This document shows, piece after piece, positions 2,879-40,412 of a stretch of 64,000 nt of DNA. The notes under the pieces were generated by a model. It did no database searches. It worked only from the letters and a program-made list of their open reading frames with translations, and was not told where the DNA came from. Made by a program: the position numbers and the translations under genes. Source of the stretch: Candidatus Harrisonbacteria bacterium CG10_big_fil_rev_8_21_14_0_10_40_38 (GTDB lineage Bacteria > Patescibacteriota > Minisyncoccia > UBA6257 > 1-14-0-10-40-38); contig PFAZ01000001.1 in NCBI GenBank assembly GCA_002773535.1, positions 154,806 to 218,805 of the forward strand. Direction: 5' to 3'. Each line of letters begins with the position of its first letter. The stretch's first letter is position 1.

Positions 2879-3384
2879 GTGTTCTACCAATTTTAAAAAT
2901 TGATGACAAAAAAGAAGAATCTTTTTTACGAAAAAAAACCAAAACAGTTGACATAGACAACCTAAATAAAAAAGAGATGCGCGATTTAATAAAAAAAATG
3001 CGCGCCACAATGAGAGATGCTGACGGAGTTGGTCTTAGTGCAAATCAAATAGGGCTCGATATGAGTCTATTTATCGCCGAGCCGCCGATCGACGAAACTG
3101 GTACAAAGCCAAAATTTTACGTAATTATTAATCCTGAAATTGTAAAAAAATCAGGCGAGTTAGATGTAATGGATGAAGGGTGTCTAAGCGTCCCGGAAAG
3201 GTTCGGGCCAGTAGAAAGAGCCGACAAAATAACGATCTCCGGCTTTGACCAAAATGGTAAGAAAATAAAAATCAAAGCATGGGGTTTCCTAGCTCGCATA
3301 TTCCAGCACGAGATAGATCACCTAAACGGAAAACTTTTTATAGACCACGCAAAAAAAATACGCAAACGTGACAAAGATAAATAA
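2875..3384 (+). CDS. def: peptide deformylase
   Basis: EGCLSVPE and HEIDHLNG metal-binding motifs; 169 aa. Confidence 0.9.
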   Translation: MSVLPILKIDDKKEESFLRKKTKTVDIDNLNKKEMRDLIKKMRATMRDADGVGLSANQIGLDMSLFIAEPPIDETGTKPKFYVIINPEIVKKSGELDVMDEGCLSVPERFGPVERADKITISGFDQNGKKIKIKAWGFLARIFQHEIDHLNGKLFIDHAKKIRKRDKDK

Positions 3385-3403
3385 TTCAGAACTTGTTTAA
3401 TCC

Positions 3404-4261
3404 ATGATTCACGATCCAAAATTCATATTTTTCGGAACTCCCCGCTTCGCAGAACTGGTTCTAAAAGAACTTCTAGACGCAAACCTTCTACCAGGAGCTG
3501 TTATTTGTAATCCCGATCGTCCGGTAGGTAGAAAAAAAACTATAACCAAACCGGCAGTAAAAAGACTGATAATCGAAAAAGAATTCGAAAATAAAATAAA
3601 AATCCTTCAACCGGAAAACTCACAGGAAATTCTGACAATATTATCAGGCATTTCAAAACCCGATATCGCTATCGTAGCCGCTTATTCAAAAATCTTACCC
3701 GCAGACATCATAAACCTACCAAAATTAGGCACATTAGGAGTTCACCCCTCGCTTCTTCCGAAATATCGAGGCGCTTCACCTATCCAATCCGTCATTTTAA
3801 GCGGTGAAAAAGAAACCGGAGTAACAATATACAAACTCGATGAAAAAATGGATCACGGCCCGATACTAGCTCAAGAAAAACAAACACTAAATGGAGATGA
3901 AACTTATCTGGACCTTGAAGAAAAATTGGCAATTTTAGGCGGAAAACTTTTAGTAAAAACCATACAAGACTACACGTCAGGCAACTTCGAGTTAAAAGAA
4001 CAAGACCACAAAAATGCTACTTTTACCAAAAAAATATCAACCGACGACGCATTTATTGATGAAAGCGACTTAATGTCAGCCCAAAATGGAGAAAATGCAG
4101 AAGAAATATATAGAAAAATCAGAGGTTTCAACCCAGAACCGGGCGCATGGACTATCAAAAACGGCAAAAGAACAAAACTCCTCGAAGCAAAGATAATAGA
4201 CAAAAAGCTTGTCTTAACCCTCATTCAAGAGGAAGGTAAAAACCCTCAAAAACCCTTATAA
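3404..4261 (+). CDS. fmt: methionyl-tRNA formyltransferase
   Basis: IFFGTPRFA N-terminus and the HPSLLPKYRGASPIQ motif; in a def-fmt pair. Confidence 0.9.
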   Translation: MIHDPKFIFFGTPRFAELVLKELLDANLLPGAVICNPDRPVGRKKTITKPAVKRLIIEKEFENKIKILQPENSQEILTILSGISKPDIAIVAAYSKILPADIINLPKLGTLGVHPSLLPKYRGASPIQSVILSGEKETGVTIYKLDEKMDHGPILAQEKQTLNGDETYLDLEEKLAILGGKLLVKTIQDYTSGNFELKEQDHKNATFTKKISTDDAFIDESDLMSAQNGENAEEIYRKIRGFNPEPGAWTIKNGKRTKLLEAKIIDKKLVLTLIQEEGKNPQKPL

Positions 4262-8739: not shown

Positions 8740-10566
8740 TTAAGAAGAAGGATCTAAAAATACCTCAATCTCCTCCCACGAAGAACCAACCGTAATTGTT
8801 TGAGAGTAAGAATCGTAACCGGAATGGGAAACGTCTAAAGTATAAGACCCCGAAGACAAACCGTGAAAAAACGCCTGCCCTGGTGGAACACATTCTGAAG
8901 CGTATGTTAAAGTCACATCAGAAACATTTGGCGTAAATGAAGTACTAGCTGTAGAAAGATAAATTTTATATTTAAAATACCTATCACCATTATGATCTGT
9001 ATTTATATCAGGTGATGTAGTTGTATAAAAAGTATTTGAAGTCCCATCAGGTCCCAAAAAATCCCAACTCAAAGGTGAACTAGTTGTAGCCGTTGCGATT
9101 TGGATTTTTAGCGGATCCGAGCCGGTATCAGGTGACTGATTTGTTGGGTTATAAGAAATAGTATAAAAAGTACTATCAGAACCCGTATCAAAAGTTGACG
9201 ATGTTAAAAATCCCGAACTTACATATGTAGTCGTCGAAACCTGATTTAAAGTAAGATCTCCAACAGGGTTGTCGACAGATATATTACCATCCTGACTCTC
9301 ATATCCTGTAAGATCTCCAAAGTCAGCCTGTCCTGACCCTCCCGACCAATCAGTCTGATTAAATGAACCGCGTCCTGTAGTTATTGTCTCATCGTACCCG
9401 CTTTTTGTGAGATTAACTACTGTATTTGCGATTGGGAGCAAAGTAACAGAATCCTTAACAGTTACAAGTAGTGCCTGCGGGTCTTTAGGCTGGACAACGA
9501 TTTTGAAATCCTGAGTCGAATTTGGTAAAAGGTTTAGCGGTATATTTGGTATTGTACCCGCTACATCATACGAAGAATTACTAAACGACATAGAGTACGC
9601 GTCCCACTCAAGATTTGAAACAGTTCTAGTTCCACCACTTCCTGTGGTAAAACCGTTTGAATATTTCAAAATATCTGGAGTGGTTCCAATAAGCTTTGCG
9701 CCAGAAAGAGTGAAGTTTATACTTCCCACCGGCGAACACGACTCCGTAAGACTCGAAACACCAAGAGTGCTTACACGATCGATAGCAAAAGTAACACTAG
9801 TAACTTGACCGGTAGCAACAGTAACCGGAAGTTTTACAGGGTTTGGTACCGAAACACTCGGCTCATATGTTTGATCCGTAGAATAACCCGTCTTTGAAAC
9901 AGTAATGTCATATGTCTGACTCCCTGGCGGAACATCAATGAGTTTCAGATACCCATCAGAATCTGTCTCATCCGTAAGATCAATTTGGGGCGTTGATGAC
10001 GCATTTACAACGTGAACCTTTGCACTCGGTATACCTATCCCATTTGCATCAATCGCTTGAATAAAAATCGCCCCGTTTGAACCAGTAGACTCAAGACTCC
10101 TCGGTGCAACCCGACCGGTAAAATTAAATATCTCTGGTCTATCACAGTTTGCGCAATTAAGTTCAAGTGAAACAAGTTTATAGTCTGCAGGCGAAGTATC
10201 GTTTGGCGCGCCACCAATAGTTCCATCAAACGGATCATCTACATTACGAATTGTAGTAGTGAGAGTAAAAGCATAATTATCCCTATAAAATATCTGAACA
10301 GGTGGCACAACTCCTGAAGGCACGCCGCCAACAACACCAACATCCGAATACGGCATGTTCCTCAAAACCTCTATCTGTTCATTTGCGATAGATGCCGCTG
10401 CAACTTTTTGCCTCGAACTCGTAAGAAGTGTGAGAACAACCGAAAAACCTTGATACAAAACAAGGCCAATAACAACTAAAAGCGCTACCCCAATAACCGT
10501 CTCGAGAAGTGATAATCCTTTGAGACGTTTTTTTTCAAGCAACGGCAAAACGGCATGCTTTCTCAT
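8740..10566 (-). CDS. very large prepilin-type protein (608 aa) with Ig-like beta-rich body
   Basis: KGLSLLETVIGVALLVVIGLVL prepilin N-terminus with Glu at +5; Thr/Ser-rich repeats. Confidence 0.7.
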   Translation of the reverse strand: MRKHAVLPLLEKKRLKGLSLLETVIGVALLVVIGLVLYQGFSVVLTLLTSSRQKVAAASIANEQIEVLRNMPYSDVGVVGGVPSGVVPPVQIFYRDNYAFTLTTTIRNVDDPFDGTIGGAPNDTSPADYKLVSLELNCANCDRPEIFNFTGRVAPRSLESTGSNGAIFIQAIDANGIGIPSAKVHVVNASSTPQIDLTDETDSDGYLKLIDVPPGSQTYDITVSKTGYSTDQTYEPSVSVPNPVKLPVTVATGQVTSVTFAIDRVSTLGVSSLTESCSPVGSINFTLSGAKLIGTTPDILKYSNGFTTGSGGTRTVSNLEWDAYSMSFSNSSYDVAGTIPNIPLNLLPNSTQDFKIVVQPKDPQALLVTVKDSVTLLPIANTVVNLTKSGYDETITTGRGSFNQTDWSGGSGQADFGDLTGYESQDGNISVDNPVGDLTLNQVSTTTYVSSGFLTSSTFDTGSDSTFYTISYNPTNQSPDTGSDPLKIQIATATTSSPLSWDFLGPDGTSNTFYTTTSPDINTDHNGDRYFKYKIYLSTASTSFTPNVSDVTLTYASECVPPGQAFFHGLSSGSYTLDVSHSGYDSYSQTITVGSSWEEIEVFLDPSS

Positions 10567-29429: not shown

Positions 29430-30338
29430 CTATGTCTTCAGATATCTCCTTATCGCCACACTCGCAGAAATCACCCCAAGTCCTACTCCAAACAAAATCT
29501 GATACGCAAAAAGTTGAAAGATATGAGAATAAAAGTAGCCGGTAAGATTCATCTCCGGCACAAACGCCTGAACATAAGGCGTGCTAAATGAAATAAACGG
29601 AAGCATCAAAAGCAGGCTCAAAACCGTTGCGATTACTCCAAAAATAACCGCCTCGATAACATAAGGTCCATTTATAAAAAAGTTCGAAGCCCCTACAAGG
29701 CGCATGATATTTATCTCTTCTCTGTTTGAATAAATCGCCAAACGGATTGTGTTAAAAATAATAAGCGCAGCCGTAACAGCAGAAAAAACAATGAGTACCA
29801 AACCAACTTTTTCAATAGTATTTATAAAATCATTAAATCGCGCAATCGCCTTACTCGTTTGCGCAAAAGTCACTTTTTCGATCTGCTCGGTAAAAGATTC
29901 GTTATTTAGAAAAGAAGCTATGAGCGGATAATCTTCTGAATCATTTGCTTTTACATTCAAAGACGCAAGAAGTGGGTTATCGCCGAGTTCCTCGAGAGCT
30001 TTCGCTACAACGGGGTCATCGATGTGCTTCTCGTTAAAAAGCTCCAATGCTTTATCCCTCGACACATAAGTCACCGACTTTACCTCTGCGACAGCCTCAA
30101 GCGAATCTTTCATACGGAGAATATCGTCTTCCGGAACATTCGTTTTAAAATAAACTCCGATATCGATTTTATCCTGAAGTGAAGCGATAGATGCATCAGT
30201 AAGAGCGCTAAACAAGATAAGCCCAGCAAGCACAACAAGAGTCAAAATCATTACATTAACCGTTGCAAACGAAAGTAGCCTGTTTCTCCAAAAGCTTTGG
30301 AATCCATATTTAACTATTCTAAAAAATGTTGTAACCAT
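29430..30338 (-). CDS. ftsX: cell-division ABC transporter permease FtsX
   Basis: FtsX topology: TM1, a large extracytoplasmic loop, then three C-terminal TMs. Directly downstream of ftsE. Confidence 0.8.
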   Translation of the reverse strand: MVTTFFRIVKYGFQSFWRNRLLSFATVNVMILTLVVLAGLILFSALTDASIASLQDKIDIGVYFKTNVPEDDILRMKDSLEAVAEVKSVTYVSRDKALELFNEKHIDDPVVAKALEELGDNPLLASLNVKANDSEDYPLIASFLNNESFTEQIEKVTFAQTSKAIARFNDFINTIEKVGLVLIVFSAVTAALIIFNTIRLAIYSNREEINIMRLVGASNFFINGPYVIEAVIFGVIATVLSLLLMLPFISFSTPYVQAFVPEMNLTGYFYSHIFQLFAYQILFGVGLGVISASVAIRRYLKT

Positions 30339-30343
30339 TTAAT

Positions 30344-31027
30344 TTAGCTTAACTTATATTTACTCTTTTGTTCATCTCTCACAATCCTTCCATCAACAAG
30401 CGTCACCACTCTTTTTCTAACAACATCAACGATTTCCTTGTTATGCGTTGCAAGGATAACAGTTGTGCCCAGTTCGTTTATTTTTGAAATGAGACGAATA
30501 ATATCAATTGTATTTTCCTCATCGAGGTTTCCTGTCGGCTCATCCGCCAAAAGCACAGATGGTCTGTGAACCATAGCGCGCGCTATGGCAATACGCTGTT
30601 TTTCCCCACCGGAAAGTTCATGTGGAAAATTAAACTCCTTATCTTCAAGTCCAACCATATCAAGTACCTGTGGAACAATCTCTTCAATTTCAGCTTGAGG
30701 CCTACCCTTCACTTCTAGTGAGAACGCAACATTTTCATAAGCATTCTTTCGTGGCAAAAGTTTAAAATCCTGAAACACTATCCCCATCTGTCGTCTTACC
30801 TCTGGCATATCTTTTGGCAAAAGCTTGCTAAGTTCATACGAACCAAAAACAACCCTTCCCTTCGTGGGCTTCTCCTCACCAATCAAAAGTTTAATGAGTG
30901 TCGATTTTCCTGCGCCAGAACGCCCAACCAGTGAAACAAACTCACCGGGCTCAATAGAAAGATCTACATCTTGAAGCGCAGCATAGTCTTTACCATAAAC
31001 TTTGCTGACGTTGTGAAATCGTATCAT
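30344..31027 (-). CDS. ftsE: cell-division ABC transporter ATP-binding protein FtsE
   Basis: GRSGAGKSTLIKLL Walker A, LSGGEKQR signature, LLADEPTGNLD Walker B. Confidence 0.9.
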   Translation of the reverse strand: MIRFHNVSKVYGKDYAALQDVDLSIEPGEFVSLVGRSGAGKSTLIKLLIGEEKPTKGRVVFGSYELSKLLPKDMPEVRRQMGIVFQDFKLLPRKNAYENVAFSLEVKGRPQAEIEEIVPQVLDMVGLEDKEFNFPHELSGGEKQRIAIARAMVHRPSVLLADEPTGNLDEENTIDIIRLISKINELGTTVILATHNKEIVDVVRKRVVTLVDGRIVRDEQKSKYKLS

Positions 31028-31130: not shown

Positions 31131-31919
31131 TTATTGCGCAAGTTCTGCAAGTATGAACTTATCCAAATCACCATCTAAAACTTTTTCAGGGTCATGAACC
31201 TCAACTTTTGTCCGGTGATCCTTCACTTGCTTGTATGGGTGTAATACATAAGAACGAATCTGGCTTCCCCACTCCGGTTTTGCTTTTGAGCGAAGATTCG
31301 ACAGTTCCTGTTCCTGGTGTTGCTCCATTAGGTGCAAAAGTTTTGACTTTAAAAGCGCCATCGCCTTATCTCTGTTTTGTTGTTGACTTCGCTCTGCCCT
31401 CGCAGCAACAACAATACCCGTTGGTTTGTGAACGATGCGAACTGCAGTTTCAACTTTATTTACATTCTGCCCTCCGGGCCCCCCTGCGCGCGAAAAAGTT
31501 ATCTCCAAGTCTTCAGGCGGGATATCAAGTTTTTTGTGTTCAATGTCCGGCAAAACCGGCACGACCTCAACTAATGCAAAAGATGTGTGTCGAAGTTTTT
31601 TTGCTGAAAACGGAGAAATCCTTACAAGCCTATGAACTCCCATTTCTTTTTTTAAATTTCCATAAGCATACTCACCTTTTATTTCGAGCGCTCTATCATC
31701 GGTTTGAATAGCCTTCCAACCTCTTCTCTCCGCATAACGCAAATACATACGAAAAAGCATATCTGCCCAATCTTTTGCATCATCACCCCCAACACCGGGA
31801 TGAATAGAAAGATGAGCAGAAAAGGCATCGTATTTTCCCGTAAGAGGCTTTAGCGGCAAATCATTTATTTCAGTCATAAATACGAAGCTAAGCATATCAA
31901 ACCGCGCACAAATTGACAA
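31131..31919 (-). CDS. prfB: peptide chain release factor 2-type protein lacking the N-terminal domain 1
   Basis: SPF stop-codon recognition tripeptide ([11 protein letters not shown]) and GGQ ([10 protein letters not shown]). Aligns to E. coli RF2 from about residue 118 onward. The region upstream is occupied by a plus-strand gene, so there is no room for domain 1 or a frameshift site. Confidence 0.7.
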
Positions 31920-31978
31920 ATATAAAAATAAATTTTACTCTTTTAAAACCAGCTCATTCCAAAACGAGGAATCAAAAG

Positions 31979-32440
31979 ATGGCAAACAAAAACAGAATCC
32001 CTCCAATGCCCATCGACCTGAACTCTGAAAATGTCGTAAACGCTGTACCAAAAGCAGGCACCATGCTTTACTTCAACATCAGCGATAAACCCAAGAAAGA
32101 AGGATATTGCAGAGTCGAACTTGTAATTAAAAATGGCGAAAAGAAAATCATTACATCCTTCGAAGACATGGAGTTAAATCGCGAAGATAGCAATGCAGCA
32201 GAAAAAGAAGCAATAAAATTTGAAGGCGAGCGCGAGCCAAATCCGCAATTTATTATTGAATGCACGTACAGAATAATTGCAAATTATCTTGCCAGAGACT
32301 CAACAGTATCAATCATGAGAGATACTCAAACAAGAACTCTCGACATCAATATAATCACCGCAGGAGCAAGATACGTTTCCCTGCGATCCATCCCATGGAT
32401 CAATGTTCTGGATTTCTTCGACGAAAAAAAAGATGAGTAG
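31979..32440 (+). CDS. hypothetical protein
   Basis: ATG at 31979 is preceded by a GAGGA SD; 153 aa. Confidence 0.4.
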   Translation: MANKNRIPPMPIDLNSENVVNAVPKAGTMLYFNISDKPKKEGYCRVELVIKNGEKKIITSFEDMELNREDSNAAEKEAIKFEGEREPNPQFIIECTYRIIANYLARDSTVSIMRDTQTRTLDINIITAGARYVSLRSIPWINVLDFFDEKKDE

Positions 32441-32467
32441 GTTCAAAAACCGAAAAAAGCCCCTGTC

Positions 32468-32492
32468 CGCAAAACAGGGGCATTAAATTTTT
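32468..32492. terminator. bidirectional intrinsic terminator
   Basis: GCCCCTGTccgcaaaACAGGGGC hairpin flanked by A-run upstream and T-run downstream, between convergent genes. Confidence 0.5.
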
Positions 32493-33248
32493 TTATAGAT
32501 AATCAAGCAACCTGTCGTAATCCAAAAACTCAAATATTTTATAAAAGAAAGTTATCCAAAGACCAAAACCATCAGTAACTAAAAGAATCCCAAGGAAAAT
32601 CAAAAACACTCCACCAACCACAGAAATAACATTTAGATATTTAGTTATTTTTGAAATATAAAACGAAGCCGAACCAATAAGTAAAGCTATTACAAGAAAC
32701 GGTAAAGCGAGACCCAAAGAAAAAACTCCTAAAAGAAACCCTCCTTTAAAAACCGTTGCAGAAGCCGCCGCCAGTGTTAAAATCGATCCCAAAATCGGGC
32801 CGACACATGGAGTCCATCCAAAACCAAAAGTTGCTCCAAAAATCAAAGAACTCACAGGATTTCCCGGTTTCAAAAATTTCACACCACCTATACGTTTTTC
32901 AACATTTAAAAATGGCAGTTTAAAAATCCCAATCATAAATAATCCAAAAAATATCACAAATATCCCCCCTATTCGAGATAGCCAAAGTCGATATTTTATA
33001 AGAACAGCCCCACCAAGACCAAAAAGACTTCCAAGTAATATAAAAACAAAGCTAAATCCAATAACAAACAAAAGTCCGTTCAAAAACACTTTTTTTCTAG
33101 AAGATTTTGATTTGTCGGGATCTCGCAAATCTTGCGATGAAACACCGCTTACAAAACCCAAATAACCGGGCACAAGTGGAAGCGTGCACGGAGCGAGAAA
33201 AGTCAAAAGTCCTGCAATGAACGCAGGAACAACAAGCGCGAGATCCAT
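32493..33248 (-). CDS. ccdA: cytochrome c biogenesis/thiol-disulfide transporter CcdA (DsbD family)
   Basis: LAPCTLPLVPGY motif and the six-TM DsbD core. Confidence 0.7.
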   Translation of the reverse strand: MDLALVVPAFIAGLLTFLAPCTLPLVPGYLGFVSGVSSQDLRDPDKSKSSRKKVFLNGLLFVIGFSFVFILLGSLFGLGGAVLIKYRLWLSRIGGIFVIFFGLFMIGIFKLPFLNVEKRIGGVKFLKPGNPVSSLIFGATFGFGWTPCVGPILGSILTLAAASATVFKGGFLLGVFSLGLALPFLVIALLIGSASFYISKITKYLNVISVVGGVFLIFLGILLVTDGFGLWITFFYKIFEFLDYDRLLDYL

Positions 33249-33274
33249 AACCTAATTATAACAAATTATTTAAG

Positions 33275-33346
33275 AGCCAGCGGTGGGAATTGAACCCACG
33301 ACCTTTGCTTTACGAAAGCACTGCTCTGCCTCTGAGCTACGCTGGC
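33275..33346 (-). tRNA. tRNA-Thr (anticodon CGT)
   Basis: GCCAGCG acceptor / CGCTGGC + T discriminator; D arm GCTC-AGAGGCA-GAGC; anticodon loop TTCGTAA; T arm GTGGG-TTCAATT-CCCAC. Confidence 0.75.
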
Positions 33347-33587
33347 AAAATTTATCAAACCCTTGCTTGAAACCTGTCCGCCTTTGGCGAAAAAGCACTG
33401 CTCTGACTCCGCCAGTTGGCGGATGGCGAAGGTAGGGAGTTAAACGGGTGACAAGCCAACACTTTTACATTTTACTCGCCAGAAGCGATTGTACAAAAAT
33501 AACAAGAAAACCGCAATTACAAAAAACGAAATCCCCCGCCTGGTAAAACCAAAACGGGGGTTGGTAGAGAAGGAAGATGGGCGCGTG

Positions 33588-33758
33588 CTAACGAATCCCC
33601 AATTCCGCCAGTCGCGCACGAGCAGCCAAACCTTGACTCCTCACGAGAGACTCGGCATGCCACCTGTCGTAAGATTCGCTAGAAGTGAGAGTTTTTTCCT
33701 CGACTTTCTCTTCTTTGTTTTCTTTCTTTTCTTCTTTCTTTTTTGGATCAGCCGCCAT
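33588..33758 (-). CDS. small Lys/Glu-rich protein (tentative)
   Basis: ATG preceded by a GGAGGGCGAGAG SD; MAADPKKKEEKKENKEEKVEEK...; the 3' half is GC-rich. Confidence 0.3.
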   Translation of the reverse strand: MAADPKKKEEKKENKEEKVEEKTLTSSESYDRWHAESLVRSQGLAARARLAELGIR

Positions 33759-33864
33759 CTCTCGCCCTCCAAAAAAAACACTATCAAGAACTACCAATAT
33801 ACTATCACAATAAAACCCCATTTGTCAATATATCAAAACCCTCGCAAAATAAGGCGAAAAAACA

Positions 33865-34794
33865 CTAAACTCCACATCCGCTTCCACTTTTTTGTGTTGG
33901 AGAAGAAACCTGGCTCACAATATTGCGATATCCCGAACCGCTTGAATATCCTGAGTCAAGAATCGCTCTTGGATCCGCATCCTTCCATGCGATACCCTTC
34001 GAATCGAGATAAGTCGCGATTGTTGTATATGCATCCGGAAACCAGTACGAATTAACCCTAAGCGCAATTTTATACATCTCATCTTCAGAAAGGCCCTGCG
34101 AAGCCATAAGCTCAAGAAGTCCAAGCATAGCCATGCCATGATTACAATCCGGAAAGTGAGTTGGGTTATTACAACACGGACGGAAAATATGTTTACTCAT
34201 TTCCTCAACCATTCCCTGTTCATCTGCAGTAAGAGAAATAAGACGATGCATACTATAGTGATCCATGACATTACCACGCGCAAGAGTCCAACCCCCTGTA
34301 GAAGCAAAGTTTTCAGCCCCTCCATATTGCGGGTCAACCATCGGGCCTGAATCAAGAATTTCGTTTTTTGTCGCAAGTCCCAAAGCCCAGAAAAGATTTA
34401 AAAGAAAACCGGAATTTAAAGAATTCATGGCTATAGAGTCGTTATTCGGGTTATTGATCAGATCCCACTCCCTGTCAGTGATACCACCTCTTCTTTCGTA
34501 TAAAGCGGAAAACTTTTCCTTGTCAATAACACCAAGTTCAGTAAGACGCACTCCAAGATCTCCCCACTCAACAGGAAGTATAAAATCTTTTGCTGGTATA
34601 ACAGCGTCTTCAATTAATTCCGCTTTTGAAATTTCGGAATTGCCAACTTTATCTGTTGCGACCGAATTACGCTCATTTATATATATGAACGTCCCGGCAA
34701 TAATCATCGAAGAAATAATTATGCTACGCGAAAATAATCGAAAAGCGCTTTCCCGAGATAAATTTGATTCTTGCATATATTTATTTTTCATCAC
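33865..34794 (-). CDS. membrane-anchored secreted protein with CC...C...C cluster
   Basis: N-terminal TM anchor; PCCNNPTHFPDCNHG and a C-terminal GSGCGV; no family assigned. Confidence 0.5.
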   Translation of the reverse strand: MMKNKYMQESNLSRESAFRLFSRSIIISSMIIAGTFIYINERNSVATDKVGNSEISKAELIEDAVIPAKDFILPVEWGDLGVRLTELGVIDKEKFSALYERRGGITDREWDLINNPNNDSIAMNSLNSGFLLNLFWALGLATKNEILDSGPMVDPQYGGAENFASTGGWTLARGNVMDHYSMHRLISLTADEQGMVEEMSKHIFRPCCNNPTHFPDCNHGMAMLGLLELMASQGLSEDEMYKIALRVNSYWFPDAYTTIATYLDSKGIAWKDADPRAILDSGYSSGSGYRNIVSQVSSPTQKSGSGCGV

Positions 34795-35317
34795 AACAAT
34801 CGACGAGTTTACTAATTAAGTCTTCAAAATCCCAAGGGTTTTTATTATTTACATCACCAGCCTTAGAGTCATCAATATGAGGAATAGAGACGAGTTTCAG
34901 ACGTACCGCCCAAAAAAGTGAATATGTGCGATAAGCACGATCAAACATATTTTTAGCTTTTTCTTTCAATCCATCAGACTGCAATTTTGTTCCAACCTCA
35001 ATAAGTCTCATCGTCGCCGCAAGAAGATGTTTGGAAATACACCACGTCTCTCCTTCATGAGCGCTGATCATTGTACCAAGAAGATCCTTTCTCAAAGACC
35101 TTACCTCATTTAGCAAGTCAAAGTATTCCGGCTTATGTGTTTTTACACCCGTAAAAAAGAAGTGTTCCTCAAGACTGATAAGGTTCATAACAGCGAGGCT
35201 CAAGTCTTCCTCAGTAGAAAGATCAACCCCACTATTTTTTTGAGCCTCTTTAACATTCTCAAGCAGTTTCTTAAATCGCTCATCATGTACATGAGCAGAA
35301 GAATTTTTTGTTGTCAT
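34781..35317 (-). CDS. hypothetical protein (ends ...VDCCDEK), overlaps downstream gene by 14 bp
   Basis: 178-aa helical protein; translationally coupled to the 33865 gene. Confidence 0.45.
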   Translation of the reverse strand: MTTKNSSAHVHDERFKKLLENVKEAQKNSGVDLSTEEDLSLAVMNLISLEEHFFFTGVKTHKPEYFDLLNEVRSLRKDLLGTMISAHEGETWCISKHLLAATMRLIEVGTKLQSDGLKEKAKNMFDRAYRTYSLFWAVRLKLVSIPHIDDSKAGDVNNKNPWDFEDLISKLVDCCDEK

Positions 35318-35323
35318 TTTAGT

Positions 35324-36106
35324 TTAAAAGAGAAAAATAATAATTCCGAGCAAAACCATTGCAAGACCACTCCATAGTTTCATAGCCAAAGTATTGCTCT
35401 TTTTCCAAGTTTGGATTCGTTCAACAAACTTTGCATTACTGGCAATCAGCAAAATAATAACTAGCGGCAAAACAAAAATCGCATTATACAGAAACAGATA
35501 CCCTAAACCCACGGTATATGTAGTGCTGTCATGAAGCAGACCCAAAACCATCAAGTATGGCCCTCCTGTACAGGGAAATTCGCACAGACCAACAAGTAAA
35601 CCTAAAAGAAACGCGGTTGGTATAGAAGCGTGCTCCATAAGACGCGCCATTGCTGAATGCGCCGCATGAGGAATGCGAAACCTAATAGGAAAAGATGGAA
35701 AAACTCCTGCAAGAAAATTAAACATTCCAAGAACAACCAAAAGCAAAGCTCCCACCTTGGCCATAAAATGTGGTGTATTAAAGAAATGAAGAGCGTGAAC
35801 AATCCCAAGCCCAATCAAAAAATACACAACAAAAAGACCTAAAATATACACGGCTCCGATTTTCAGAATGCCAGAACGCATTTTTCCGAGCGAAAGTAGA
35901 AAAGCGATAGTTAGAAGAAGAATTCCAAATGCGCAAGGATTAATGCTGTCTATAAGAGCGGCGATACTAACAAGTGGCAAAAGCCACGTTCCACCACGAC
36001 TAACATCCCAGATAAACGCTGAACTGGATGGCACAGATTTTAGAACTATAACCGATCCAAAAATAAAAACTCCAACAATAATCGAGATAAGTAATGTTTT
36101 ATTCAT
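35324..36106 (-). CDS. DsbD/CcdA-like polytopic membrane thiol-disulfide protein
   Basis: INPCAFG and CEFPCTGGP Cys motifs within TM helices; about seven TMs. Confidence 0.5.
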   Translation of the reverse strand: MNKTLLISIIVGVFIFGSVIVLKSVPSSSAFIWDVSRGGTWLLPLVSIAALIDSINPCAFGILLLTIAFLLSLGKMRSGILKIGAVYILGLFVVYFLIGLGIVHALHFFNTPHFMAKVGALLLVVLGMFNFLAGVFPSFPIRFRIPHAAHSAMARLMEHASIPTAFLLGLLVGLCEFPCTGGPYLMVLGLLHDSTTYTVGLGYLFLYNAIFVLPLVIILLIASNAKFVERIQTWKKSNTLAMKLWSGLAMVLLGIIIFLF

Positions 36107-36111
36107 ACAAA

Positions 36112-36609
36112 TTAGGGCGTAACTATTGCATGAAATTTAAGTTCAACAGGGTTATTCGCATCATTCTCAATCGTCACAACCCTGTTTACCTGCCCGACAC
36201 CAGCAGGACCATGGGCAGCAGGATCAAAGACAACATCAACTATCGCTTCATCACCTAAATCAAGAGTTTGATCTACTCGGGGAATTATCCCGTGACCACG
36301 CATTCCAAAAGGACCAAATCTCTCACCAGCAATCTGAAGAGTCGCAGAAGTGCACATACACGATGTATAAAACTTTCTAATAACAACAGGCGAAGCTCCA
36401 ACATTTTTTAACACGAATTTATGCGACACCACACCACTACTCATTGATATCGTGCCAAAATCAAAGTAATTAGAATCAACAACCGTAAGAGAACCAGTGC
36501 CATTTTGAGATGAGCCAGACGACACTCCGCTCACATCACCGCCGGCAAGCAAAAGAACAATTCCCAACGCCGCAGCGCCAAGAAAAATTCCTATAATATT
36601 TTTTTGCAT
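36112..36609 (-). CDS. DUF1573-family secreted protein
   Basis: Signal peptide; the TSCMCT motif within a beta-rich ~120-aa domain is typical of DUF1573. Confidence 0.6.
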   Translation of the reverse strand: MQKNIIGIFLGAAALGIVLLLAGGDVSGVSSGSSQNGTGSLTVVDSNYFDFGTISMSSGVVSHKFVLKNVGASPVVIRKFYTSCMCTSATLQIAGERFGPFGMRGHGIIPRVDQTLDLGDEAIVDVVFDPAAHGPAGVGQVNRVVTIENDANNPVELKFHAIVTP

Positions 36610-36723
36610 TTTTTAGATAAATAAAGATAAAAAGTCCCCAAAAAAAGGAGAAGAAATACTCGCGCGTAAAAAATGATTTCGATCGACTTATCCGCTAAAA
36701 AAGCGAAAAAAAGGAAACCGGAT

Positions 36724-37122
36724 TTAGGCGCGTAAAAAATACGGCGGACTGGTTTTATAAAAAGAGAGCCACAAAATAAAATCACAAAAGAAAACTATAA
36801 TACTCGAAAATACAATTCGTAAAAAATAAAAAGCTTTTGCGGAAAAAAACAAAATAATAAACCAAAGCAAAAAAGAAAGAGTTAGCAAAACAGATAAATT
36901 TATAAAAATTAGAAAAGGCTGCACCAATAAAATCTGCGCGAAACTTTTAAATACTCCTAAATGAAATTTAAGATAACTAAAAACATTTCCCTCGGGACAA
37001 TCAACTCCATTCATAGACGCTGCAATGCAATCACTATGATTCATGACACCATGAAAAAAAGGAGAGAATGTAGACAAAAAGATAAAGCTATAAAAAAGTA
37101 AAATTGATAAAAAATATTTCAT
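36724..37122 (-). CDS. small membrane protein with Cys/His/Met cluster (tentative)
   Basis: HGVMNHSDCIAASMNGVDCPEGN between TM helices; immediately downstream of the Cu-ATPase; AT-rich, so coding status is uncertain. Confidence 0.3.
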   Translation of the reverse strand: MKYFLSILLFYSFIFLSTFSPFFHGVMNHSDCIAASMNGVDCPEGNVFSYLKFHLGVFKSFAQILLVQPFLIFINLSVLLTLSFLLWFIILFFSAKAFYFLRIVFSSIIVFFCDFILWLSFYKTSPPYFLRA

Positions 37123-37126
37123 AAAA

Positions 37127-39160
37127 CTAATATGTTAGTTCAACTCGTTTCAATAAAAGCGCATTAAAAACAACGATCGCGGTAGACACACTCATAAGCA
37201 ACGCCCCAATTTCCGGACGCAAAAAGAAACCAAAAGAGGCAAACACTCCTGCAGCGGCGGGGATCGCGACCACATTATATCCAAGCGCCCAGAAAAGATT
37301 TTCGATCATCTTCTGATACACCCGTCTTGCAAGCACAACCAGACGCACAACATCTTGCGGATTGTTTCGCATAAGAACAACATCCCCCGCTTCGACAGCG
37401 ACATCCGTACCCGCGCCAATAGCTATACCAACATCAGCTTGCGTAAGAGCAGGCGCATCATTGATACCATCTCCAACCATCAGAACCACATGGCCTTTAC
37501 CCTGAAGCGATTTTACATGAGAATATTTTTCTTCCGGCAAAACATGCGAAAAATAAGTATCGATACCAAGTTCATTCGACACGTTTTTTGCCACAATCTC
37601 GTTATCCCCCGTAAGCAAAGCAACTTTTACACCAAGCGAATGCAAAGCTGTAACCGCTTCATAAGATTCGGCTTTTATAGTATCAGCAAGGGCAATAACT
37701 CCTATTATCTTTTTCTTATCAGAAACAAATACAACCGTATGACCTTTTGATGAAAAAGCATTTGCCTGCTGCATAGCTTCATCAGTCGAAATTCCCAAAT
37801 CACTCATAAGAGAAGAATTTCCAACAGAATATTTTGAACCTAAAATATTTCCCCAAATTCCCTTTCCGGAAAAATTATGAAATTCATCAACGTCATCAAT
37901 ATTTATACCCTTATCCTTTGCATGCCTCGCGATAGACTGCGCAATAACGTGCGAGGAATTGGTTTCAAGCGAAGCCGCGATACGCAATATATCTTCACCA
38001 TTAACTTCATCGCCAAATGACACAACACCCGAAACACCAAATTCCCCCTTCGTCAGAGTTCCTGTTTTATCAAACACAACATAATCAGCTTTTTTTATCA
38101 CTTCAAGTTTTGCAAGATTTTTTATAAAAAGTCCGTTCTTTACCGCAAGAGATGTCGCAATCGTGGTAACAGTAGGTATCGCAAGGCCGAGGGCATGCGG
38201 ACACGCTATCACAAGCACCGTTATAGCAAGAGTCAGCGCAAATACAAAAGGCTTCCCAATGACAAACAACCATATAACAATAGTCAGCAATGAAACCCCC
38301 AGAGCGGTAAAAGTGAGAACACGCGAAGCTTTATCAGCTAGTTTTTGTGATCTCGGTTTTGTAGCCTGCGCTTTTGCGATTAGCGTCTGAATTTGACCCA
38401 CGGTTGAATGCTCACCAACTTTAGTAAGTTGTATCGTAAGTGATCCATCTAAAACAGACGATCCCGCAGTAGCGCTGTCCCCTGCATTTTTTGAAATAGG
38501 CGTTGACTCCCCACTTATGAGAGACTCATCAACGCTTGAAGTTCCTTTCAGAACAACACCATCGGCAGGTATCTTTTCCCCCGATTTTACCAAAACAACG
38601 TCCCCCTCTCTTAGTTCAGAAACAGAAACATCCTCCGTCACATTTCCCGAGATTCTATGTGCAGCTTTAGGTAAAAGTCTTGCCACCTCGGAAAGAGAAT
38701 TCCCCGCCGCCACGCTGGATTTTGCCTCCAAATAATGTCCAAAAAGTAGCACCCAAATAAGAGTTCCTATCTCAAGATAAAACACAACACCGAGAGCGGG
38801 AATAAGTGTAGAAGCAACTGAAAATAAAAACCCAGACCCAACAGCAAGCGACACAAGCGTCATCATGCCAAACGATCGCATCATTATTTCATGTCTTGCA
38901 TGCTTAAAGAAGACAAGAGAAAACCAAAAAATAACTGTTGCAATAGCAAGCTGAATCCATTTATTTAAACTTAAAACCGGTACACCCAAAAAATCCGCAA
39001 AACCTTGTTTAGCAAGAACCAAGGGAATGAGAAGTAAGGTTACTATCCAAAACCTACGCAAAAAATCACTCGCCGAGCCATGAGATATAGCACCGGCATA
39101 TGACACATTAGCATGCGACATTGCATGAGCATGTGACGAATTATGATGCATATGCTCCAT
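37127..39160 (-). CDS. copB: heavy-metal P1B-type ATPase, CopB-like (His-rich N-terminus, CPH motif)
   Basis: N-terminal MEHMHHNSSHAHAMSHA; TM CPHALGL; DKTGTLT; GDGINDAP. Confidence 0.85.
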   Translation of the reverse strand: MEHMHHNSSHAHAMSHANVSYAGAISHGSASDFLRRFWIVTLLLIPLVLAKQGFADFLGVPVLSLNKWIQLAIATVIFWFSLVFFKHARHEIMMRSFGMMTLVSLAVGSGFLFSVASTLIPALGVVFYLEIGTLIWVLLFGHYLEAKSSVAAGNSLSEVARLLPKAAHRISGNVTEDVSVSELREGDVVLVKSGEKIPADGVVLKGTSSVDESLISGESTPISKNAGDSATAGSSVLDGSLTIQLTKVGEHSTVGQIQTLIAKAQATKPRSQKLADKASRVLTFTALGVSLLTIVIWLFVIGKPFVFALTLAITVLVIACPHALGLAIPTVTTIATSLAVKNGLFIKNLAKLEVIKKADYVVFDKTGTLTKGEFGVSGVVSFGDEVNGEDILRIAASLETNSSHVIAQSIARHAKDKGINIDDVDEFHNFSGKGIWGNILGSKYSVGNSSLMSDLGISTDEAMQQANAFSSKGHTVVFVSDKKKIIGVIALADTIKAESYEAVTALHSLGVKVALLTGDNEIVAKNVSNELGIDTYFSHVLPEEKYSHVKSLQGKGHVVLMVGDGINDAPALTQADVGIAIGAGTDVAVEAGDVVLMRNNPQDVVRLVVLARRVYQKMIENLFWALGYNVVAIPAAAGVFASFGFFLRPEIGALLMSVSTAIVVFNALLLKRVELTY

Positions 39161-39163
39161 AAA

Positions 39164-39631
39164 CTATTTTTTTAGTAGAAACTTAACTAACGCAAAAATC
39201 GACAGGATAAGAAATATCCATACAAGCCCAAACGTAACCGTAAAATAGGCTGAATTCCACCCAGAATTGGCATAATTACCCATGCCATAAGGCGACATCA
39301 TAGACATCATCGGCATTGTATAAGGAGTGCCGGAATAACCGGACCAGCATCCAAGATATGATCGCCCCATATTGATATGCGCCAACCTTAGGCTTTCAGA
39401 CCCCTCACCACCCATCATATTATCCATTGCCTCATGTTGATCCTCATCAGGAATCATAACCCTCATATAAGCATCACCTAAAAACTCAAACTGATCATCG
39501 GTAACCTTCTTACAATCAACATCATCGAGGCTTGAAATGTTCTGAAAAGCGTAAATAGATTCTAAAGCTTCATTTAATTCAGCGCTTTGAACATTTCCAA
39601 TATAACTATTATATCCACCCATCATGCCCAT
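39164..39631 (-). CDS. Met-rich membrane-anchored protein, putative Cu(I)-binding
   Basis: MGMMGGY...MDNMMGGEG...YTMPMMSMMSPYGMG plus a C-terminal TM; position between csoR and copB. Confidence 0.5.
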   Translation of the reverse strand: MGMMGGYNSYIGNVQSAELNEALESIYAFQNISSLDDVDCKKVTDDQFEFLGDAYMRVMIPDEDQHEAMDNMMGGEGSESLRLAHINMGRSYLGCWSGYSGTPYTMPMMSMMSPYGMGNYANSGWNSAYFTVTFGLVWIFLILSIFALVKFLLKK

Positions 39632-39701
39632 CTGAGCAAATGCCGTACCTGAAAAGAAAAATAAACCAACGACAAACAGTGAAAAAAATATCTTTTTTAT
39701 A

Positions 39702-39974
39702 TTATTTATTAGATAAATTATAAACCTTTATAAGTTCCTTAACCGCCTTTTCATTTTCCTTTTTATTTGTCATCTGCTCAGCAACATGAGTACGCAAATG
39801 ATTTTCTAAAAGAAATGAATCAAGGCTTTTAAGCGACCTTTGAATCGAACGGGATTGTTCAAGTAATTCCGGGCAATAAACTTCATTTTCTATCGATTTA
39901 ATAAGTCCATCTATCTGACCCTTAAGTATTTTAGCTCTATGCAGAGCCCTTTTTTTAAGTAATTGATCTACCAT
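39702..39974 (-). CDS. csoR: CsoR/RcnR-family metal-sensing repressor
   Basis: C-terminal 90 aa match the DUF156 helical bundle (ALHRAKILKGQIDGL...YCPELLEQSRSIQRSL). Start moved to the internal ATG at 39974 because the ORF-track N-terminus is read through tRNA-Gly. Confidence 0.7.
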   Translation of the reverse strand: MVDQLLKKRALHRAKILKGQIDGLIKSIENEVYCPELLEQSRSIQRSLKSLDSFLLENHLRTHVAEQMTNKKENEKAVKELIKVYNLSNK

Positions 39975-40030
39975 ACATAAATAGCATATACCCCTATACC
40001 CTATTTGACAATATAAACATGTGGATAATC

Positions 40031-40104
40031 TTGGAGCGGGTAACGGGAATCGGACCCGTGTCTCAACCTTGGGAAGGTCGCGTACTGCCACTGTACTATA
40101 CCCG
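40031..40104 (-). tRNA. tRNA-Gly (anticodon CCC), CCA encoded
   Basis: GCGGGTA/TACCCGC acceptor; D arm GTAC-AGTGGCA-GTAC; anticodon loop TTCCCAA; T arm ACGGG-TCCGATT-CCCGT; ends TCCA. Confidence 0.75.
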
Positions 40105-40412
40105 CATACCAATCTTTATATCACCACTTTCACTTACATTTCAACACAAAAAACTAGCTCTGTTCTATTTGATTTTATAAATCAAATAGAACTACCTTAA
40201 GTCCAACTACGCTAAAAACGCACAATGAAAATGAATTACACAAAACACCTCTGTATATTATTTTTCGAAACTCCGCAGGTAATTCGGCTTGGTTCCCCGC
40301 ATTACGGGGACGAATTACCGAGGACAAGCAAGTGAGCCGCTGGAGCGAACGCAGCGTGTTGAGAAAAGTAATATGGAGAGGTGTTTAATTCAAAAAATAA
40401 AACCACCAATTT

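Follow-up and report, generated by a model that had tools for sequence, protein, structure and literature searches.

A short release factor 2 without domain 1 at the ancestral prfB locus of a Parcubacterium and its relatives

In bacterial release factor 2 (RF2), the product of prfB, an SPF motif serves in codon recognition and a GGQ motif in peptidyl-tRNA hydrolysis. A CUU UGA C site for +1 frameshifting is common in prfB, but not universal. Deletion constructs in E. coli are the ground on which domain 1 of RF2 and of release factor 1 (RF1) has been described as functional yet dispensable. Among related factors, PrfH is the partner of RtcB2, and ArfB/ICT1/mtRF-R, which shares the GGQ domain, has no codon-reading domains 2 and 4 and carries a basic C-terminal tail. 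Here we describe a gene encoding an RF2 that has no domain 1. It lies in a stretch of 64,000 nucleotides (the window) from Candidatus Harrisonbacteria bacterium CG10_big_fil_rev_8_21_14_0_10_40_38, i.e., positions 154,806 to 218,805 of contig PFAZ01000001.1 (assembly GCA_002773535.1).

Domain 1 makes contact with ribosomal protein L11's N-terminal domain, as shown for RF1 (PMC3677378). According to the account of Mora et al. (2003) given in PMC1586002, an E. coli RF1 or RF2 from which the N-terminal domain has been deleted keeps its codon specificity and its release activity in vitro, and no longer stimulates nucleotide exchange on RF3. Factors truncated in this way have the same architecture as the protein analysed here; however, they are laboratory constructs made by deletion, whereas the short RF2 occurs in nature, where it is fixed and has been conserved throughout a clade. 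PrfH (also RF-H; TIGR03072) likewise has no domain 1 and keeps GGQ (PMC1586002). Canonical RF2 (E. coli 1GQE; T. thermophilus 2IHR) shares domains 2, 3 and 4, SPF, GGQ and the decoding residues with the short protein, which differs in having no part of domain 1 (a module of about 105 residues) and in being without the +1 frameshift that two sister genes keep. By mechanism and descent it is an RF2, one that departs from the group in one defining feature, domain 1, and in one common feature, the frameshift. In the full-text literature, a coverage that excludes subscription journals, we found no description of a natural RF2 or RF1 without domain 1 in bacteria of the candidate phyla radiation (CPR).

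The short prfB gene and its product

The gene and its motifs are placed as follows.

31131..31877, minus strand: prfB in its short form, which gives 248 aa when read from ATG 31877 to the TAA stop codon and encodes only RF2 domains 2, 3 and 4
31895, minus strand: alternative ATG start, giving the 254-aa form that is annotated publicly
31608..31616, minus strand: SPF tripeptide, residues 88-90, read directly and aligned with E. coli 205-207
31467..31475, minus strand: GGQ, residues 135-137, read directly and aligned with E. coli 250-252

The minus-strand open reading frame (ORF) spans 31131..31919, with a TTG at 31919 and in-frame ATG codons at 31895 and 31877, and the N termini of homologues favor one of these two ATGs as the start. 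The NCBIfam prfB profile (TIGR00020) gave the best score, 332.9 bits, over profile positions 109-352 of 353, bearing out an initial annotation, made from the letters of the window alone, in which this SPF- and GGQ-containing protein was taken to be an RF2 homologue without domain 1. Only the second half of the Pfam PCRF domain was matched (model positions 94-194 of 194), with a complete Pfam RF-1 domain (positions 4-116 of 116). The same annotation had set the start at the equivalent of about E. coli residue 118. A truncation in that region was indeed found, but the point lies nearer residues 108-117: identity with E. coli RF2 was 46% across E. coli 117-361 by BLASTP, and Met1 of the 248-aa form aligned at E. 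coli residue 108 in a MAFFT multiple alignment. Among solved structures, the top 21 sequence matches in the PDB were all RF2, in which the matched part starts at about residue 104-119. A 30-member alignment was the basis of an AlphaFold model with a predicted local distance difference test (pLDDT) score of 74 and a predicted template modeling (pTM) score of 0.72. The top Foldseek matches of this model were RF2 crystal structures in a compact form, 2IHR (E 1.5e-24) and 1GQE (TMq 0.70), with 247 aligned columns.

At the positions that align with E. coli G138, D143, R213-H214-T215 and W319, the 16 sequences compared had identical residues. One relative, at a locus designated L009, carries SPY where the other short RF2 sequences compared have SPF. 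The domain-2 hairpin is 10 residues shorter than that of E. coli RF2 (residues 169-178), the site lying at window positions 31700-31720 (protein residues 55-65). Because this shortening is found also in a full-length sister protein, P0122, and in some Parcubacterial RF1s ('IDDLTLEI'), it predates the loss of domain 1.

Alignment to competing NCBIfam profiles left RF2 as the best assignment, and a better match to PrfH, against which the initial annotation had cautioned, did not emerge. The prfA profile scored 190 bits against 333 for prfB, and the protein has SPF instead of a PxT motif, so that an identity as RF1 was ruled out. PrfH scored 75.7 bits against a cut-off of 166.65, and the solved PrfH chain 9mor_A matched only the stretch of the GGQ domain at residues 119-216 (E 9e-14). 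Decoding residues of PrfH differ from those of RF2, e.g., in having P for G138 (PMC1586002), whereas the short RF2 keeps both SPF and G138. There was no rtcB immediately upstream of the short prfB, where the neighbors are a hypothetical gene, a DsbD-like gene and a tRNA. The score below cut-off, the RF2-type decoding residues and the missing rtcB rule out PrfH. ArfB was ruled out as well, with 61 bits against a cut-off of 100, a match confined to residues 129-163, and domains 2 and 4 complete in the short protein.

Conservation and descent of the short form

Five contigs, drawn from independent ENA, JGI and Logan assemblies, carry a gene for exactly this 254-aa RF2 amid the same neighbors; because the locus is identical in these five independent contigs, the short prfB is not an artefact. 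Its best 120 homologues were 69-100% identical and 239-306 aa long, mostly about 240-250 aa. Their length distribution alone is not proof of a short family, because the word-indexed search seems biased toward proteins about as long as the query. The same N-terminal boundary recurs in more than 100 species clusters. Six of the longer homologues (266-306 aa) were inspected, and their N-terminal extensions were unrelated to RF2, being read-through from upstream DNA; in at least three of the six, the extension was a translated upstream tRNA gene, e.g., '...AQLVEQ..RKVEV.GSIP..GS'. An exhaustive HMMER search of 1.84 billion cluster representatives found the nearest full-length RF2s at 65% (P0121) and 64% (P0122) identity, against at least 69% for the short ones, which supports that length distribution. 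Thirty species-level short RF2s had a mean column identity of 74%, with SPF, GGQ and about 80 other positions invariant. Judged by these alignments, the short RF2 is a conserved family under selection in many species, in keeping with the initial description of a "naturally minimised" release factor.

The neighborhood of the gene bears on its descent.

30344..31027, minus strand: ftsE (ABC ATPase), directly downstream of prfB, in an order kept in relatives
29430..30338, minus strand: ftsX (FtsX_ECD and FtsX permease domains), order likewise kept in relatives
33274..33346, minus strand: tRNA-Thr(CGU), a conserved upstream landmark, separated from prfB here by two inserted genes
32493..33248, minus strand: DsbD/CcdA-like membrane protein, between tRNA-Thr and prfB, absent from that place in L009 and L090

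A scan of species-representative genomes yielded at least seven Patescibacteria loci, full-length in L005, L006, L008, L042 and L083 and short in L007 and L009. The order prfB-ftsE-ftsX was found in the window, in the short loci L009, L089, L090 and L091, and in the full-length loci L006, L008 and L083. Upstream of prfB, tRNA-Thr(CGU) was found in the window, in the short loci L007, L009, L089, L090 and L091, and in full-length L006 (L007 ends inside prfB, so that its synteny extends only as far as that gene). Further upstream, the window, L089 and L090 share LepA and a DivIC-like gene, of which L091 has the DivIC-like gene only, and tRNA-Gly(CCC) precedes tRNA-Thr(CGU) in L090 and L091. Because full-length genes occupy the same locus, the short gene is a prfB orthologue truncated in place, rather than a PrfH, an ArfB or a paralogue from some other site. 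A prfB without domain 1 is thus the derived state, and positional orthology holds.

In neighbor-joining (NJ) trees of the shared region, 16 short RF2 sequences were monophyletic in 80% of 200 bootstraps, and the clade adjoined the full-length P0122, L006, P0121 and L005. These full-length sister RF2s are 61-67% identical to the short RF2 and keep domain 1. Two of them, L005 and L006, also keep the frameshift cassette, in which a short reading frame runs to '...RL*' at CTT TGA C and the +1 frame comes next, while P0122 is full-length without a cassette. A fragment of a P0122-like full-length gene, P0277, also starts just past a tRNA, so that the tRNA-prfB junction is probably older than the deletion of domain 1. 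The RF2 of L009 starts 11 residues later than the others and joins the short clade in 8.5% of bootstraps, which weakly hints that it may represent a second, independent loss of domain 1.

Immediately upstream of the short gene, the window has the following features.

31878..31978, no strand assigned: intergenic region between divergent genes, about 100 bp long, bearing promoter-like hexamers of the minus strand and leaving no room for an upstream exon
31947..31919, minus strand: putative promoter-like hexamers TTTAAA-17-TATATT, by consensus match only
31919..31891, minus strand: putative promoter-like hexamers TTGTCA-17-TATGCT, by consensus match only
31979..32440, plus strand: divergent hypothetical gene, 153 aa, with GAGGA before its ATG, occupying the DNA where domain 1 would be
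32459..32481, no strand assigned: hairpin rich in G+C, with a terminator score on either strand, between the DsbD-like gene and the divergent pair

The initial annotation held that the upstream DNA was taken up by a divergent gene with its own Shine-Dalgarno sequence, leaving no place for domain 1 or for the autoregulatory frameshift. The divergent gene is there, its ATG at 31979 following GAGGA, but it does not directly abut prfB, whose coding sequence extends to 31877 or 31895, with the intergenic region upstream of it. Both of the predicted absences were confirmed. No CTTTGA occurs on the minus strand between 31000 and 32800, and domain 1 was found neither in the gene or the DNA upstream of it nor in any of the six frames of the window: a hidden Markov model (HMM) of 75 RF2 N-terminal domains gave a best E value of 0.4 there, while recovering three Patescibacterial full-length RF2s used as positive controls at E values of 1e-10 to 1e-15. 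With tblastn, E. coli N-terminal domains had no match in the window. In seven short-RF2 loci, up to 20 kb long, the HMM found nothing either, and no remnant of domain 1 can be seen in the DNA that joins the tRNA to the short gene. Inspection of the upstream DNA showed the promoter-like region and the plus-strand gene, without a short exon, and together with the missing CTTTGA these rule out a hidden upstream exon or frameshift.

The 153-aa gene is called on the strand opposite prfB in four other assemblies and had no Pfam or NCBIfam match. It is missing from the corresponding position in L089-L091, and thus appears to be lineage-specific. In some relatives, the ATG of the short prfB lies 0-10 nt past the 3' end of tRNA-Thr(CGU) (in L090, at about 9918-10003), and in L009 (9896-10030) it overlaps the CCA-like end of that tRNA. 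In such relatives processing of the tRNA may generate the prfB mRNA and leave it with almost no leader. The promoter-like hexamers of the window would likewise leave a prfB leader of only about 7-15 nt.

In the window, tRNA-Thr(CGU) is separated from tRNA-Gly(CCC) (40032-40105) by about 6.7 kb (33347-40031), whereas in L090 and L091 the two tRNAs are 1-123 nt apart. The genes of this stretch encode a CsoR-type repressor, a P-type ATPase (37127-39160), and DUF1573 and SfLAP-like proteins, and it looks like an inserted metal-handling island.

Termination by the short RF2 and rival explanations

The 76 non-overlapping ORFs of the window, which follow the standard code, end in TAA (33), TAG (25) or TGA (18, about 24%), and TGA ends nine of the 52 ORFs of at least 150 aa. 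Because TGA and TAG stops are in use, an RF2-type activity is required, and RF1 as well. A TAG share of 33% seems high to us for DNA of 40% G+C, and implies heavy reliance on RF1. Neither prfA nor prfC was found in the window, where EF-G, LepA, S12 and S7 are present.

We consider it likely that the short gene is the working, orthologous RF2 of this organism, operating without domain 1. In the mechanism that we propose, the roughly 105 codons of domain 1, with any +1 frameshift cassette, would have been deleted in place in an ancestor within Parcubacteria. The product would retain all that decoding and catalysis are known to require, i.e., the complete decoding superdomain (domains 2 and 4, with SPF) and the catalytic domain 3 (GGQ), and would bind the A site, read UGA and UAA, open, and trigger peptidyl-tRNA hydrolysis like an ordinary class-I factor. 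The one part that it lacks is the module by which a release factor is docked on L11 and the L7/L12 stalk and coupled to RF3; because that module is missing, the short RF2 would have to leave the ribosome spontaneously. The level of RF2 would no longer be set by frameshift autoregulation. We infer catalytic activity, codon specificity, independence of RF3 and the status of sole RF2 for the short protein. RF3 is itself dispensable and is missing from 72 of 191 bacterial genomes, most small ones included, and weaker binding of release factors has been proposed as compensation for its absence (PMC1780047).

Several points weigh against a working RF2. The protein scores 333 bits, below the curated NCBIfam prfB cut-off of 370, because profile positions 1-108 have no counterpart in it. 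NCBI names many members of the family "release factor-like", and "PCRF domain-containing" is also in use. The AlphaFold model is of only moderate confidence. The window covers 64 kb, whereas the whole contig measures about 443 kb, so that a second, full-length prfB, a domain 1 supplied in trans or a prfC may sit elsewhere. Finally, a reviewer comment printed with PMC1586002, citing Mora et al., states that truncated RF2 gives only slow growth of E. coli, and full function without compensation is therefore not guaranteed.

The short protein could instead be an extra, specialised paralogue of the PrfH or ArfB kind, acting in rescue or quality control, with a full-length RF2 encoded elsewhere. 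Release factor homologues without domain 1 (PrfH, ArfB/ICT1) do have non-canonical roles (PMC1586002), about 85% of the contig lies outside the window, and the NCBI label "release factor-like" would fit such a protein. However, the short gene holds the ancestral prfB slot (tRNA-Thr...prfB-ftsEX), which in sister lineages is held by full-length genes; SPF and the other decoding residues are unchanged, unlike those of PrfH; scores with the PrfH and ArfB profiles fall far short of their cut-offs, with no neighboring rtcB; and none of seven Patescibacteria assemblies had two RF2 genes among the matches listed. We regard a specialised paralogue as unlikely. A split gene, with domain 1 made separately elsewhere and joining the short factor on the ribosome, is less probable still, and would be surprising given what the searches returned. 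Domain 1 is a helical module, flexible and folding on its own (PMC1586002), and distant parts of the genome lie outside the DNA that was searched, but the domain-1 HMM was negative in the window and in seven short-RF2 loci, and there is no conserved small neighbor, the upstream genes differing between lineages. A search of 5.8 billion proteins with an N-domain profile of the sister clade returned 11 short proteins, all closest to full-length sister genes; this search seems to favor query-like lengths and so suits the question, with uncertain recall. The split-gene evidence that the initial annotation had in mind came down to ORF fragments: the sole stand-alone domain-1 locus inspected, P0271 (L085), proved to be part of a full-length gene that carries a frameshift in an error-rich long-read assembly, and two further matches end in out-of-frame sequence.

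At L085-L088 (samples ERZ25039480 and ERZ25039472), frameshift errors split prfA or prfB into two or three ORFs, and such errors give rise to spurious "stand-alone" PCRF or RF-1 domain proteins in databases. That some related long-read loci are riddled with frameshifts, and that the data are from a metagenome-assembled genome, might suggest that the short prfB is itself an artefact or a decaying gene, arising by mis-assembly, a mis-called start, an unrecognised frameshift or as the remnant of a pseudogene. Against this stand the five independent, identical assemblies, the N-terminal boundary common to more than 100 clusters, an intact ORF with invariant catalytic and decoding motifs, and upstream DNA that consists of a tRNA or another gene rather than of degraded prfB. 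An artefact or pseudogene is effectively refuted, and is the least credible of the alternatives. A functioning RF2, truncated in place, accounts for the locus best, and this groundwater Parcubacterium and more than 100 related species clusters probably end translation at UGA and UAA with a naturally minimal RF2.

Loss of domain 1 in RF1 and its implications

A cluster representative of 286 aa, P0135, is RF2-like (with SPF) to about residue 210 and has an RF1-like C terminus ('GTGDRSEKIRTYN'); it is either a genuine hybrid or a chimera that assembly created across the conserved GGQ stretch. Its C terminus led to three long-read RF1 loci (L086-L088), in one of which about 26 residues precede the RAGxGG motif. 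With this RF1 as the seed, a metagenome scan gave a survey of 80 RF1 loci. In 16 of these, the RF1 ORFs were 238-266 aa long, with 8-30 residues before RAGxGG, and were complete in all but L142.

Locus positions of about 3000-3750 where flanks are complete, no strand assigned: RF1 without domain 1, in L092, L116, L117, L121-L125, L127-L129, L132, L142, L147 and L155

At about two dozen other loci (L093, L095-L115 and L118), the N-terminal domain of the Patescibacteria-like RF1 was shortened, with about 82-100 residues before the motif, and this looks like an intermediate stage of erosion, to judge from residue counts. The rest were canonical, with about 113-120 residues. An RF1 N-domain HMM found nothing upstream in the short RF1 loci, while detecting its controls, the one exception being a partial match, weak in score, that lies within the gene of L094. 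When five short RF1s were scanned, the prfA profile matched from position 102-105 onward. Ten short RF1 sequences are exact database entries, under names that include Candidatus Wolfebacteria, Colwellbacteria, Brennerbacteria and the Parcubacteria group; one entry is labelled Spirochaetia, which we take to be a mislabel.

The short RF1 thus shows the same kind of loss as the short RF2, in a paralogous factor that has PxT-type motifs, but the lineage names attached to it (Wolfebacteria, Colwellbacteria, Brennerbacteria) differ from those on the short RF2. No RF1 was found within 10 kb of the short prfB in four lineages, and comparison by sample and coverage tied none of the RF1 loci to a genome with a short RF2. 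Going beyond the initial annotation, which concerned the single gene, we find that the truncation is clade-wide and in place at the ancestral prfB locus, and that RF1 has undergone a like loss in other Parcubacteria. On the pattern of these sequences, loss or erosion of domain 1 is a recurrent trend in Parcubacteria, affecting both RF1 and RF2. It is conceivable, although we would stop short of calling it probable, that one branch of Parcubacteria ends all of its translation with an RF1 and an RF2 that both lack domain 1, through repeated independent deletions. This idea draws on the short-RF2 clade, the second boundary in L009, at least two types of short RF1, and the many eroded RF1s. If true, the release factors of that branch would neither dock on L11 or the L7/L12 stalk nor couple to RF3, and prfB would not be autoregulated by frameshifting; the outcome would be a natural minimal termination system.

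Because the short forms fall below curated cut-offs and carry vague labels, genome surveys could wrongly score RF2 or RF1 as missing, or even report reassignment of a stop codon. The short prfB also raises the question of how RF2 dosage is set without the classic frameshift autoregulation. To our knowledge, it is unsettled why nearly all bacteria keep domain 1, many of those without RF3 included. The natural short-RF2 clade and the sister lineages with short RF1 offer a comparative system for what domain 1 does, one that could show how the ribosome or the use of stop codons changes when the domain is lost.

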